NCBI RefSeq assembly: GCF_030013205.1
Contig: NZ_CP122648.1
Strand: one strand, 5' to 3'
From: Escherichia coli
GTDB taxonomy: Bacteria; Pseudomonadota; Gammaproteobacteria; Enterobacterales; Enterobacteriaceae
DNA: 64,000 bases
A model generated the notes under the pieces. The model searched no databases, had not been told where the DNA came from, and saw only the letters and a program-made list of their open reading frames with translations. Made by a program: the position numbers and the translations under genes. Below, one piece after another: positions 51,477 to 64,000 of the stretch; the stretch's first letter is position 1, and every line of letters begins with the position of its first letter.

Positions 51477-51490
51477 TGGTCGCACGAGAG
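51477..51490 (-). other. attR-like junction: partial copy of a tRNA-Pro (proL-type) 3' end
   Basis: Plus strand TGGTCGCACGAGAG is the reverse complement of ...CTCTCGTG(C)CGACCA, the recalled 3' acceptor end of E. coli tRNA-Pro(GGG), with one missing base; sits where K-12 has proL next to yejO and right after the yejO terminators. Confidence 0.4.
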
Positions 51491-52311
51491 TATTCAAAAC
51501 ACGCCAATAACCTCTTGATTTAATTGAAGTCGAAAATTTTAAGTCAAAAATCGTATAGCTTAACGTGTAGCTAAAAATGTTTGCTGCAAAAGTATACAAT
51601 TTTAACCGTTATGACTCCCTGTTATCCGTTATCAAGCTGGTGGATGATCATGGATAACCCGTTATGGGAATCCCCATATCGGCATCAGGCCCACCAGCGC
51701 GACGCATTTTTTTAATTTCGCGGGTGTAAAAATTTGACGGGGCGGGCGGTCCCATAAGCAATGGGGGGTAGGGATTTCGATCCCCCCTCCTGAATGCAAT
51801 TTTTCGTATGTGGCTGTGCGTCCACCAGCTACGCCGGAATGGGGTATTCCGTTTCAACGGAACAGGTATGACGAACATGATCGCACCTTCTCCCGAAAAC
51901 GGTGCGACCTCCATAGAGGAAATGCCTATTCAGATCCCCGGTGATTTTCACCATTCAGAATCTGGAGGGTGAGTTTTCCAGTTTTCCCCAATGGGGGATT
52001 CTGGAACAATCAACGGGTTAGCGATTAAGCTGGCGAGTAATTAAACTGCGAAAATTTCGTAGTTTGTGAATATATTCCGGCTTGCTGGTTAACAGTCCTC
52101 AGATGTGAGGGATGTAGCCAGCGCAATTTTGCGTCGTCGGATATATCAACAACTTAGCACAAAAATAAGTCAGGCAGATACAAACCTCAAATTTGAGGTT
52201 TGCTTGTTTATCAACGGGTAAGGATAATCATCTCCCCTTTAAAGCCCCTTCGAAGGGTTACCCGTAGGCTTAATGTAAGGCTTGGCTGTAGCCTTACCGA
52301 ACGCTCCGCTC

Positions 52312-52490
52312 ACCGTCGCGGCCTGTCCGGTTTCTTCCACTGATACGGCCTCACATCATCCTGCTGGTGGCGTTCCTGTTGCAGCACAACGGAAACAGGC
52401 GCTGAACACCTGTTAATTTTGCTTGCAGGTTGTTTGATTCCGGCAATGCTGCGGATCATCTCCAGCATATCGGCTTCGGTGATGGTCATG
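52312..52490 (-). CDS. hypothetical small protein (59 aa), low-confidence ORF
   Basis: ATG at 52490..52488 gives MTITEADMLEMIRSIAGIKQPASKINRCSAPVSVVLQQERHQQDDVRPYQWKKPDRPRR; below the 60-aa track cutoff; lies between the repeat array and the hairpin-rich non-coding segment. Confidence 0.25.
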
Positions 52491-52520
52491 ATTTACACCT
52501 TAGGAAATCTTAGGGGCTGG

Positions 52521-52777
52521 TTGACACTTTCCGGCTTAAGACCTTAACAAATCTTAACATCGCAGGTTGACACACTTGACACTTTTTCGCGAAAAACCTT
52601 ATCAAACCTTAGCATTTCTAAGCATGGCAACTTGACACTTTTCGCGATTTTTTCGGCTTTTTGACGTGGTAAATCTGGCGAAAGGCCAGTAATGGCGGGG
52701 CTTACAGCGAGGTTGACACTTTTTCGCGTTCAGAGTGTAAAGTGTCAACCTGGCAAGCTGCTCAACTTGACACTTTT
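52521..52777 (+). repeat. array of about 7 direct copies (plus one inverted) of TTGACACTTTTTCGCG-like motif
   Basis: Copies at about 52521, 52567, 52576, 52632, 52661 (degenerate TTGACG), 52713, 52766 and inverted GTGTCAA at 52742; irregular 45-80 bp spacing; immediately 3' of the HTH gene 52783..53310. Confidence 0.6.
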
Positions 52778-52782
52778 TGAGG

Positions 52783-53310
52783 TCATTGATGGCCTGATTT
52801 TTCCCACTCAGCCAGGGCGTTTAGTCCGGCTTCACTCCAGTTATCCAGCTCATCGGGACAATCACCTGCAACATAGCAGAGCTCACAACGCAGCATACGA
52901 ATTGCCAGCCTGGCATTTTCCCGAAAATCATACTGCTCAAAGTAATATTGCCCAGCATAATCCTCAAGGCAGATAGCACCATCATCAAGAAATTGCACTT
53001 CACAGCATAGTTCCCCGGCTGCATCCTGTACACGCTGCTGTATGTCATTGTCCGTTACTGGTGCAGGGATTTTACCGTCTCTGGCCTTAACTGCTTTCCA
53101 GAACTCGCCCCACGTCATTTCCAGCGTTCTCTCTGGCCACATTTCAGAAACTGTGTCTTTTCCCTGTGCTGGTGGGCTGTTCCGCTGCTCTGTCGCTTCC
53201 ACATCGATTTTTTTACCGGACATGACCACTTCGCCTTTCTCGATCCAGTCGTAAACTGTCTGGCGGCTTACGCCTTTGTGTTTGGCATATTCTGCCTTGC
53301 TCATAAACAT
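52783..53310 (-). CDS. winged-HTH (excisionase/MerR/Nu1-type) DNA-binding protein with Cys-rich C-terminal region
   Basis: 175-aa ORF; N-terminus SKAEYAKHKGVSRQTVYDWIEKGEVVMSGKKI has the GVSRxTVYxWIxxGK pattern of excisionase/AlpA/terminase-small-subunit HTH domains; C-terminal half holds 7 cysteines including CELC. Confidence 0.5.
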   Translation of the reverse strand: MFMSKAEYAKHKGVSRQTVYDWIEKGEVVMSGKKIDVEATEQRNSPPAQGKDTVSEMWPERTLEMTWGEFWKAVKARDGKIPAPVTDNDIQQRVQDAAGELCCEVQFLDDGAICLEDYAGQYYFEQYDFRENARLAIRMLRCELCYVAGDCPDELDNWSEAGLNALAEWEKSGHQ

Positions 53311-53361
53311 GACACTTCCCCTCAGACTGTATTAATGCGCCGGAAAGCGCGTGTATTTAAA

Positions 53362-62903: not shown

Positions 62904-62971
62904 TATGTTTTACCTCGTTAATCCGGCGTATTCCGGTGATAAATACGGTAAAACAGGGCAGGGCGGGAAAA

Positions 62972-63008
62972 ACAGTACCCACCGTTTTAAAACGGTACCC
63001 ACTGTTTT
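62972..63008. promoter_or_regulatory. candidate operator in the alpA upstream region
   Basis: ACAGTACCCACCGTTTTAAAACGGTACCCACTGTTTTTT: two direct GTACCCAC copies flanking the perfect palindrome CCGTTTTAAAACGG, about 70-100 bp upstream of the alpA start. Confidence 0.4.
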
Positions 63009-63039
63009 TTATCTCATTGATTACGCTTTTCTTTTTGCA

Positions 63040-63066
63040 AAAAAATAGCGACCGCAAAGGGCCGCT
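63040..63066 (-). terminator. intrinsic terminator after the 76-aa ORF
   Basis: Minus strand ATAGCGGCCCTTTGCGGTCGCTAT hairpin followed by TTTTTTT. Confidence 0.45.
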
Positions 63067-63073
63067 ATTGTGA

Positions 63074-63304
63074 TTACCGCTTCCACTTCTTAGGTCGTCC
63101 ACCGCATTTAAGGCTGGTGGGTCTCAGCACCTTGTCGATGCTTTCAGCCAGATTTTTCGATGCGCCACGCGAGCGCAAAAAACTGACTACCTCGTGTTTT
63201 GTGGGGGCTGTTGATTTGTCTTCCGGATCGTACGTTGACCAGAATTCACGATTTGCCATTAAGGCCAGTTGCAGGCCTTCGCCGTAGGCGGTGGTATTTT
63301 GCAT
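63074..63304 (-). CDS. hypothetical small protein (76 aa)
   Basis: ORF MQNTTAYGEGLQLALMANREFWSTYDPEDKSTAPTKHEVVSFLRSRGASKNL between int and alpA; no family recognised. Confidence 0.45.
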   Translation of the reverse strand: MQNTTAYGEGLQLALMANREFWSTYDPEDKSTAPTKHEVVSFLRSRGASKNLAESIDKVLRPTSLKCGGRPKKWKR

Positions 63305-63402
63305 AATAGAATTTTCATATACTCCGGCCTTGTCGTTAAATTTGTGGCAATTATACGATGGTTTGGCATGGTTTTCACTGGTTGCACTGGCTTTTTGTAC
63401 AG

Positions 63403-64000
63403 TTACACGGCACGGATACCCCTTTTACCACTGGCTATGGTCACTCCGGTAGCTGCGGCCTCTACAAATTCCCCCCACCAGCGCATAAGCACCACGCGCT
63501 TTTCCAGGTAGTTACTTCGGTTATATGCTCGCCTTACCTCGTTCGTGTCCACGTGTGCGAGTGCGGCCTCGATTACGTCCGGCTCGAATCCTTCCTCGTT
63601 CGCTGCTGTACTGAATATGGCGCGTAATCCGTGAGACACCAGCACACCAGCGTATCCCATCCGGCGCAATGCAGCGTTAGCGGTCTGGCTGCTCATTGGC
63701 AGCATTGGATTTTTAAGGCTGGGAAAAACATGTTCCCTGTGTGCGCTGATTGGCTTCATTGTTTCCAGTACAGCCATCGCCTGACCGCAAAGAGGGATCA
63801 CATGGTCACGGCGCATCTTCATGCGTCCGGCTGGAATCGTCCAGGTTTCGGCATCGAGATCTATTTCTTCCCAGCGTGCGGCGGCTGCTTCGGCTGGGCG
63901 TGCTACGGTCAGCAGTTGCCACTCAATCAGCAATCTGGTTTGCCGTTCTATGCTGGCGACCGATAAATCGTGCATTAGCTGCGGTAGCTGTTCCGGTCGG
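63403..64000 (-). CDS. int: tyrosine recombinase / P4-type integrase, C-terminal catalytic part (gene starts beyond right edge)
   Basis: Frame is open to the window edge; C-terminal sequence ...HDLSVASIERQTRLLIEWQLLTVARPAEAAAARWEEIDL...HVIPL...LVSHGLRAIFSTAANEEGF...RRAYNRSNYLEKR shows the R...HxxR...Y catalytic residues of tyrosine integrases. Confidence 0.85.
   Translation of the reverse strand, partial: RPEQLPQLMHDLSVASIERQTRLLIEWQLLTVARPAEAAAARWEEIDLDAETWTIPAGRMKMRRDHVIPLCGQAMAVLETMKPISAHREHVFPSLKNPMLPMSSQTANAALRRMGYAGVLVSHGLRAIFSTAANEEGFEPDVIEAALAHVDTNEVRRAYNRSNYLEKRVVLMRWWGEFVEAAATGVTIASGKRGIRAV

Follow-up and report, generated by a model that had tools for sequence, protein, structure and literature searches.

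The island between yejO and yejM

The 64,000-nucleotide stretch of Escherichia coli DNA analysed here (contig NZ_CP122648.1; referred to below as the window) ends inside an integrated element that starts at position 51477, next to yejO. We found that this element is a complete phage-inducible chromosomal island (PICI) of a known E. coli family, inserted at the 3′ end of the tRNA-Pro gene proL, and that its late operon carries genes for a tail assembly chaperone and a tail tape measure protein next to genes for a predicted prohead protease and a scaffold-domain protein. The chromosome of the porcine E. coli ETEC4079 (NZ_CP122643) served as comparison sequence past the window edge; the window equals this record, the sole difference being one T in a T-run at 51468. 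To the right of the window, the RefSeq record of ETEC4079 continues with the remainder of a 413-aa integrase gene, followed by proL and then yejM, which means that the region does not lead into a prophage. The first-pass annotation had proposed a phage satellite and had considered that the right edge might lead into a complete prophage; the element is indeed a satellite, and what was found past the edge was the end of the integrase gene, proL and yejM.

The boundaries were set by an empty site in strain K_EC180, where the yejO terminator directly adjoins an intact tRNA 3′ end. By this comparison, the inserted DNA amounts to 13,377 bp, extending from 51477 to proL, 854 bp past the window edge. 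The degenerate copy of the proL 3′ end at 51477–51498 (TGGTCGCACGAGAGTATTCAAA; attR) is thus the true left boundary, and the intact copy lies at window-equivalent positions 64854–64875. The tRNA-Pro 3′-end-like repeat pointed out in the first-pass annotation is hence real, and the search for an empty site and attachment sites suggested there defined the insertion. A 26-bp direct repeat, CGTATAGCTTAACGTGTAGCTAAAAA, emerged from local alignment of both junctions; it lies at 51552–51577, and 25 of its 26 positions recur in a second copy at window-equivalent 64710–64735, between int and proL. These repeats resemble the TTTGTAGTTATACG repeats published as 'att core' of E. coli chromosomal islands (EcCIs) at the yejM–luxR site. 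As the att core of the present element the inner repeat was ruled out, since the empty site places the boundary at the tRNA 3′-end copy; the 26-bp repeats are probably arm-type sites of the integrase. ARAGORN detected no tRNA within the 64-kb window, because proL lies 854 bp beyond its edge, and Rfam at gathering thresholds gave no match in 48000–64000. An integrase at one end, a specific attachment site (proL) and a size of 13.4 kb, within the range of about 8–15 kb, are all as expected of a PICI.

All island genes lie on the minus strand except one, and alpA is located downstream of int, in keeping with the unidirectional transcription of PICIs. The P4-type tyrosine integrase is represented in the window by its C-terminal 190+ aa (63403–64000, running off the edge; NCBIfam PRK09692, 560 bits; phrog_1; RefSeq context); in ETEC4079, the full 413-aa gene reaches window-equivalent 64644, and proL follows at 64854–64930. 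A 76-aa hypothetical protein (63074–63304), seen as an open reading frame (ORF) and in RefSeq and without family match, separates int from the gene for an AlpA-family regulator (62697–62903; Pfam Phage_AlpA PF05930, E = 5.5e-8). The latter gave one local BLASTP alignment with the gene at the AlpA position of the known PICI EcCICFT073, with 60% identity over 25 residues (E = 3e-9). The sole gene on the plus strand encodes a YlcI/YnfO-family protein (61755–62060) and has the same position and orientation in EcCICFT073. An Icd-like cell-division-inhibitor pseudogene follows at 61190–61627 (RefSeq), with matches of repressor and Icd PHROGs to the C-terminal 50 aa. A 500-aa open frame at 61190–62692, which covers this pseudogene as well as the regulatory region, is almost certainly spurious; RefSeq has only the truncated Icd-like pseudogene there, and sister islands carry intact Icd-like genes. 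Two conserved small PICI genes come next, encoding a 121-aa hypothetical protein (60832–61197; RefSeq and profile searches) and a DUF4222 protein (60526–60825), which precedes the replicase in EcCICFT073 too.

The replication initiator is a 471-aa RepA-family replicative helicase (59114–60529), which matches phrog_2850 over its full length as well as helicase and primase PHROGs, and is named 'helicase RepA family protein' in RefSeq. Directly 3′ of its gene we found a candidate replication origin (58795–59114), an AT-rich stretch with iterons of the sequence TCCTCACTTTT in both orientations. Eight copies lie in this interval; the whole window holds 10, with 1.07 expected, and the GC content at 58500–58999 is 0.378. 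A RepA helicase gene with iterons 3′ of it by an AT-rich stretch is the layout described for PICI origins. Further along, the island encodes a ProQ/FinO-domain RNA-binding protein (58105–58647; NCBIfam FinO, E = 9.5e-18; ProQ, E = 1.1e-15) and a PerC-family transcriptional activator (57821–58108; phrog_994 and activator PHROGs; RefSeq); PerC is already known from E. coli PICIs. The last island gene, beyond the late operon, encodes a 59-aa hypothetical protein (52310–52489; RefSeq) and has the same position in related islands.

The features listed in the first-pass annotation (integrase, 76-aa ORF, AlpA, helicase and iterons, FinO/ProQ and PerC proteins, late operon) were thus all present where it had placed them. 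Its statement that capsid, portal, large terminase and lysis genes are missing was likewise borne out: the element contains no portal, capsid, sheath, tube, baseplate, large terminase or lysis genes or fragments. PADLOC recognized no known defence gene among ten island proteins.

Two observations concern the flanking chromosome. The extra T at 51468 relative to RefSeq lies in the T-run of the yejO terminator and is probably a homopolymer sequencing or assembly difference. The yejO gene itself (48784–51375) is intact and encodes an autotransporter of 863 aa; its E. coli K-12 counterpart is a pseudogene interrupted by an insertion sequence.

The late operon and its adjoining repeats

Four genes of the late operon, those for the chaperone, the tape measure protein, the protease and the scaffold-domain protein, have counterparts in Escherichia phage Rac-SA53 and among lambdoid prophages whose heads are Mu-like and whose tails are contractile; we consider these the putative helper type. 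The tail assembly chaperone gene occupies 55401–56083. Its 205-aa product (55466–56083) is 82% identical to that of Rac-SA53 rac52, which in that phage lies directly upstream of the tape measure gene, and a 97-aa ORF overlaps it in the −1 frame (75% identity). A slippery heptamer, T_TTT_TTT, is located at 55697–55703 (codon 127); the predicted −1 frameshift product would comprise 227 aa and end at 55401, overlapping the tape measure start codon. Both the heptamer and the open −1 frame are kept in four PICI and two phage copies. The 205-/97-aa pair, which the first-pass annotation had described as 'frameshifted', is a predicted programmed −1 frameshift site in the classic arrangement of tail assembly chaperone genes, also conserved in the phage homologues, and not damage.

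The adjacent gene (53362–55401) encodes a 679-aa tail tape measure protein that matches phrog_7694 over its full length and carries a C-terminal muralytic domain (residues ∼508–638). This C-terminus matches tape measure and transglycosylase PHROGs and is homologous to the solved endolysin 7q47; Gp29 of 9vvp was a further PDB match of the protein, and Pfam reported no SLT domain in it. In Rac-SA53 and the JNEC-KY180 prophage, the homologous gene lies between the chaperone gene and the baseplate genes. The N-terminus is 49% identical to that of Rac-SA53, and amino-acid identity to the JNEC-KY180 copy is 84%; copies of the helper type range from 657 to 691 aa in length. The last 37 residues form a distinct allele common to the three PICI copies aligned (the window, L004 and L010), and this allele was not seen in either of the two phage copies compared. 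Residues 41–66 likewise set the island protein apart from prophage copies. The suggestion of a chaperone/tape-measure-like pair in the first-pass annotation was therefore correct.

Upstream of the chaperone gene lies the gene for a 227-aa DUF2213 protein (56080–56763; Pfam DUF2213; phrog_530, head maturation protease), which consists of a prohead protease domain and a C-terminal helix. It is 54% identical to the N-terminal half of a 430-aa Rac-SA53 protein encoded between the portal/MuF-type genes and the capsid gene. Its AlphaFold2 model had a predicted local distance difference test (pLDDT) score of 82.5, and the top Foldseek matches in the PDB were nearly all herpesvirus assemblins and T4 gp21, with modest yet very consistent scores (best E 4e-3, TM about 0.4). 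The invariant residues His73, Ser125/127 and His161 are kept in the island copy. Given the Rac-SA53 homology, the assemblin/gp21 fold matches and the retained His/Ser/His residues, we consider the 227-aa protein a predicted prohead maturation protease of assemblin fold. In searches of the literature on DUF2213 in satellites, nothing relevant turned up.

The C-terminal part of the same 430-aa phage protein has its counterpart in the preceding island gene. This gene (56828–57415; annotated as 192 aa) encodes a 195-aa protein with a unique 60-aa N-terminus, whose residues 61–189 are 64% identical to the C-terminus of the Rac-SA53 protein and match phrog_6216 at positions 409–544; it is a candidate alternative scaffold. 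In the phage gene, a Glu/Ala/Lys-rich linker of ∼75 aa connects the protease and scaffold domains; in the PICI, the two domains are separate genes without the linker and in reversed order relative to the phage fusion. Phage Mu likewise encodes its scaffold-like gpZ separately from gpI. The split and re-ordered pair would be a candidate for a new mechanism of capsid-size redirection. The label 'NUDIX hydrolase' attached to the 195-aa protein was rejected: Pfam found no domain at all in it, NUDIX included, and the name was carried over from phage homologues with a fused NUDIX domain. Some distant homologues truly have a NUDIX domain fused N-terminally to DUF2213. Annotations of helper-type phages also appear to be wrong in places (L005 30506–31942, L003 9274–10566); the gene at the portal position carries the label 'anti-CBASS protein Acb1 family', and the protease-scaffold gene is called 'TolA protein' or 'NUDIX hydrolase'. 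The first gene of the late operon encodes a 57-aa protein (57446–57619) that looks like a ribbon–helix–helix regulator and is 47% identical to the product of the small gene that precedes the ejection-protein operon of the PICI EcCIMP1.

On the other side of the tape measure gene, at 52783–53310, the island encodes a 175-aa DNA-binding protein with an N-terminal winged helix–turn–helix (HTH) of the small-terminase/excisionase type (phrog_57, small terminase, E = 5e-7, residues 1–42). Its position is that of RppA in EcCICFT073, and RppA matches the same small-terminase PHROG region; direct similarity between the two proteins is weak and confined to the HTH (E = 3e-4). The first 42 residues are nearly invariant across Enterobacterales. 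The cysteines are not conserved in the family, so that of the description 'HTH/Cys-rich' in the first-pass annotation the HTH part stands. In the AlphaFold2 model (pLDDT 89), Foldseek matched only the N-terminal winged HTH (to Xis) and gave no PDB match for the well-predicted C-terminal α/β domain; the protein had no sequence match in the PDB either, and showed no similarity to the 363-aa small terminase of the helper. Its position would suggest an Rpp-like role.

Immediately downstream of this gene, at 52520–52776, we found six repeats of the GTTGACACTTT type, five direct and one inverted. The 64-kb window contains seven matches to GTTGACACTTT where 1.27 are expected, and six of the seven lie in this cluster, which may represent candidate binding sites or a packaging-recognition region. 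A cosN-like motif, GACGGGGCGGGCGGTCCCAT, occurs further out at 51736–51755 and recurs in the related PICIs L006 and L009 and, weakly, in EcCIMP1. It resembles ACGGGGCGGCGACCTCG, the core of lambda cosN. As a packaging site common to island and helper, however, the motif found no support, being absent from both helper-type loci. About 430 bp around it (51687–52121) are missing from the STEC346 island.

Age, selection and co-occurrence with the putative helper

The segment encoding the chaperone and tape measure protein is 88% nucleotide-identical to the JNEC-KY180 prophage copy, compared with 65–68% for the protease and scaffold genes. Because of this difference, we regard the tail genes as a much more recent capture than the head genes. 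All five PICI copies of the tape measure and chaperone genes that were examined are full length; the islands carrying them use four integrases (at proL, a tRNA-Gly gene, smrA–abgR and yicC–dinD) and three replicase types. Pairwise comparison of four of these five copies yielded dN/dS values of 0.07–0.21 for the tape measure gene, at dS of 0.14–0.31, and mostly 0.10–0.16 for the chaperone gene, for which one pair with three substitutions was uninformative. The two genes are thus intact and under purifying selection.

A second PICI in ETEC4079 resides at a tRNA-Gly gene (L013; NZ_CP122643 953811–979146) and has a different integrase, antirepressor and primase. Its late region is 99.5% identical to that of the window island over 6.5 kb (window 52122–58651), and the chaperone and protease of the two islands have identical protein accessions. 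Since the late regions agree so closely despite different integrases and primases, the late module appears to move between backbones, and the likeness points to a recent exchange of late modules between co-resident satellites. A third copy of the protease/scaffold pair is located somewhere in the ETEC4079 genome.

The protease/scaffold PICI subfamily was found in 33 of 5426 complete E. coli genomes, and the full operon in about 13; sister islands occupy the lysR–smrA and yicC sites. Prophages of the Rac-SA53 type usually reside at the Rac (uspF–ttcA) site, and the helper-type head and tail module is present in 93 of the 5426 genomes (1.7%). For co-occurrence, 60 of these 93 helper genomes were listed, which makes each overlap a lower bound, and the statistics ignore kinship. 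On this basis, the helper module accompanies at least 13 of the 33 subfamily genomes, compared with 1.7% overall (odds ratio 43, Fisher p = 2e-15). The PICI subfamily hence co-occurs strongly with its putative helper type, and UMNF18 and STEC719 are natural strains that contain both. Natural island variants that lack the tail genes occur in ETEC6335 and Z1323HEC0477. Among the genomes listed, a helper prophage was found alongside 2 of 13 islands with the tape measure gene versus 11 of 20 without it (p = 0.03), a weak trend among related strains.

Proposed life cycle and relation to known satellites

We think it likely that the element is a complete and probably mobile PICI of the EcCI family in the proL 3′ end, with a late module matched to its helper and a life cycle as follows. 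Helper induction would switch on AlpA, and the island would excise and then replicate from the RepA/iteron origin. With the late operon on, the PICI prohead protease and the linker-less scaffold-domain protein would enter helper procapsids, which would probably redirect assembly towards small capsids fitting 13.4 kb. The 175-aa protein would bind the GTTGACACTTT repeats and guide the terminase of the helper to PICI DNA, in the manner of Rpp in EcCICFT073. Finally, the chaperone of the PICI and the frameshift product derived from it would, along with the PICI tape measure protein, replace those of the helper in some tails, giving chimeric tails as in the PICI-like elements (PLEs) of Vibrio. Possible gains from such tails would be escape from factors that target the helper tape measure protein, or control of DNA entry.

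Several points weigh against this proposal. With about 13 of 5426 genomes, the tail gene pair is rare; most of it has been deleted from the sister island L006 at the same proL site, and the captured block 53311–56088 is absent from the sister island L007 at the yicC site, where the junction is displaced by a few bases (53310/56089); the pair is therefore dispensable for the subfamily. How the PICI tape measure protein should be chosen over that of the phage is difficult to explain, given its 84% identity to the JNEC-KY180 copy, compared with about 20% between PLE proteins and their phage counterparts. Small-capsid formation is argued from analogy and genome size, and excision, packaging and helper dependence of the element are steps that we infer. 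The 175-aa protein has no similarity to RppC detectable by PDB sequence search or Foldseek beyond the HTH class, and no cos or pac site common to element and helper was found. In ETEC4079 itself, the Rac (uspF–ttcA) site is empty (a helper might reside elsewhere in the genome), and the strain is not among the 60 of 93 helper-bearing genomes listed.

Some of these points suit a different account, in which passive recombination captured a 2.8-kb helper segment between the protease and 175-aa genes that now hitch-hikes without a role in the life cycle. The 88% nucleotide identity to the prophage, against 65–68% in the neighbouring head genes, marks a recent capture; no more than about 13 of the 33 subfamily genomes have the module, which L007 cleanly lacks and which is deleted in L006; and as late modules are swapped wholesale (99.5% identity within ETEC4079), one capture could explain its spread. 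Mere hitch-hiking sits poorly, however, with five of five PICI copies being full length, with the frameshift site being intact in four of four checked, with dN/dS of 0.07–0.21 at dS of 0.14–0.31 among PICI copies, and with a C-terminal 37-aa allele that PICI copies have for themselves and the two phage copies compared do not. The PLE case shows, moreover, that a satellite may need genes of this kind for its transfer. We regard passive capture as an unlikely explanation, albeit one to be taken seriously. It is more doubtful that the pair serves against the helper, with PICI tape measure protein and chaperone competing in tail assembly and lowering helper yield rather than improving PICI particles. 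Both PICIs and prophages are known to interfere with tail assembly (Tai, PMC11364771; Tab, PMC10884400), the C-terminal tail specific to the PICI tape measure protein might fit helper partners poorly, and the helper was less often listed alongside tail-gene islands (2/13 versus 11/20, p = 0.03). That trend is nevertheless weak, with clonally related strains and 60 of 93 helper genomes listed; the tape measure protein is complete and close to functional phage tape measure proteins, and the PICI itself needs tails for its spread.

The presence of structural homologues (protease, scaffold domain, tail chaperone and tape measure protein), which tools of the SatelliteFinder type treat as prophage evidence in the case of tail genes, might suggest a decayed or chimeric prophage, as the first-pass annotation had offered as an alternative. 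This we consider very improbable given the precise att boundaries and the empty site, a full PICI backbone in an order identical to that of EcCICFT073, the same compact architecture at four attachment sites, intact genes under purifying selection and the lack of portal, capsid, sheath, tube, baseplate, terminase or lysis fragments. Scarcely any weight attaches to a P4-like satellite. The P4-type integrase at a tRNA gene (PRK09692), AlpA and a size near that of P4 would fit, but searches of the island proteins against PHROG, NCBIfam and Pfam gave no hit to Sid, Psu, Delta or epsilon, nor a match to an alpha-type primase over the full length, and the helper-derived genes come from a lambdoid phage with a Mu-like head and not from P2. 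Of the original label 'P4/PICI-like', the PICI half stands by its EcCICFT073 gene order; with P4, the element has the integrase type in common and no match to Sid, Psu or Delta. A capsid-forming PICI (cf-PICI) was ruled out by gene content: cf-PICIs encode their own major capsid protein, portal, connectors and large terminase, whereas the island has a head protease and a scaffold-domain protein only.

PICIs of Gram-negative E. coli were described by Fillol-Salom et al. 2018 (PMC6092414). Table S1 of that paper lists six PICIs at the yejM–luxR/aidA locus (four E. coli EcCIs and two Shigella islands), as well as PICI sites at lysR–smrA and yicC. The island shares with EcCIs its size class, its one-directional transcription and the yejM–yejO locus. 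Its genes follow the order of EcCICFT073: int, AlpA, the divergent YlcI/YnfO gene, an Icd-like gene, small genes, DUF4222, replicase and iteron origin, then a nucleic-acid-binding protein, PerC, a small gene, virion genes, a small-terminase-like HTH protein and a further small gene. The 'new satellite architecture' suggested initially was hence an overstatement as far as the backbone is concerned, which is that of EcCIs at a listed locus (PMC6092414); the tail gene pair is what is new for PICIs in the searchable literature. In detail, the replicase is a RepA helicase instead of the EcCICFT073 primase, and the ProQ/FinO protein stands where EcCICFT073 has a single-stranded DNA-binding protein. 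EcCICFT073 uses the Rpp mechanism (PMC6739421); in the 175-aa island protein, no homology to Rpp could be detected apart from the HTH. As helper, a contractile-tailed lambdoid phage is likely rather than lambda or phi80. In the late slot, EcCICFT073 carries homologues of lambda-type capsid and decoration proteins (L008 8963–11594), and the island has protease, scaffold domain, chaperone and tape measure genes. With tail chaperone and tape measure genes, the element departs from the rule that PICIs carry no phage structural or lysis genes, and SatelliteFinder forbids tail and holin genes in PICI candidates. As this rule is operational and EcCICFT073 itself has capsid and decoration homologues, the element is still to be filed as a PICI.

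EcCIMP1, which is mobilized by the P22-like phage Kapi1 (PMC11773190), shares with the island a PICI backbone with AlpA, PerC and DUF4222, the homologous small gene (47%) at the head of the late operon, and a slot that encodes helper-type proteins for ejection into the recipient, one with a muralytic domain. It differs in size (20 kb), integrase (thrW site) and primase, and its slot (L002 6481–11842) contains homologues of P22-type gp14, gp7, gp20 and gp16 and no tail chaperone or tape measure gene; the EcCIMP1 paper mentions the late-slot genes only as hypothetical morphogenesis proteins. Three fillings of the slot have thus been seen, namely chaperone and muralytic tape measure protein in the island, a P22-type ejection set in EcCIMP1, and capsid and decoration proteins in EcCICFT073. 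Tentatively, and against the greater likelihood, the late slot of enterobacterial PICIs might be an exchangeable cassette, restocked again and again from whichever helper is current, with virion-exit proteins that open the recipient envelope as one recurrent choice. If so, satellites would give their particles DNA-delivery proteins of their own, distinct from those of the helper, and PICI DNA could enter cells, e.g. helper lysogens, that exclude or sense the helper tape measure or ejection proteins. Tools that forbid tail genes would then be likely to call such satellites prophage remnants and miss them systematically.

With the size redirection of Staphylococcus aureus pathogenicity islands (SaPIs; CpmA/CpmB, Ccm), the island has in common a satellite homologue of a helper head-assembly protein. 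SaPI Cpm proteins have no sequence relationship to those of the island, which also duplicates the protease gene and in which small capsids would be a prediction.

The closest parallel to the tail genes is provided by Vibrio PLEs, whose chaperone, tape measure protein and sometimes baseplate hub enter chimeric tails and are needed for transduction; deletion of the PLE tape measure gene lowered transduction by 96–99% (PMC11838301, a 2025 preprint). The same study noted predicted tape measure genes in some other satellites (PMC11838301), and a satellite tape measure protein was called notable in the mycobacterial EPIPs (December 2025 preprint). By gene content, with its own chaperone and tape measure genes, the island is a candidate member of this PLE-type class of chimeric-tail satellites. 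No description of E. coli PICIs with chaperone and tape measure genes was found in the searchable literature, within which the pair is new for PICIs, having already been shown for PLEs. Like the island, PLEs encode homologues of the tail chaperone and tape measure protein of a helper with a contractile tail, and they also manipulate the capsid. In contrast to PLEs, the island, a member of an unrelated satellite family, would use a temperate helper, and it lacks a baseplate hub gene. Its tape measure protein is 84% identical to that of the helper type, compared with about 20% for PLE proteins, and, being near helper length, would not be expected to shorten the tail. Until 2025, satellites were thought to take whole tails from their helpers, and PLEs then showed that a satellite can replace the tape measure protein. 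With the island and its dozen or so relatives, chimeric tails would extend from Vibrio PLEs to E. coli PICIs, a genetically tractable setting with a temperate lambdoid helper, in which natural islands that have the tail genes can be compared with natural islands that lack them.

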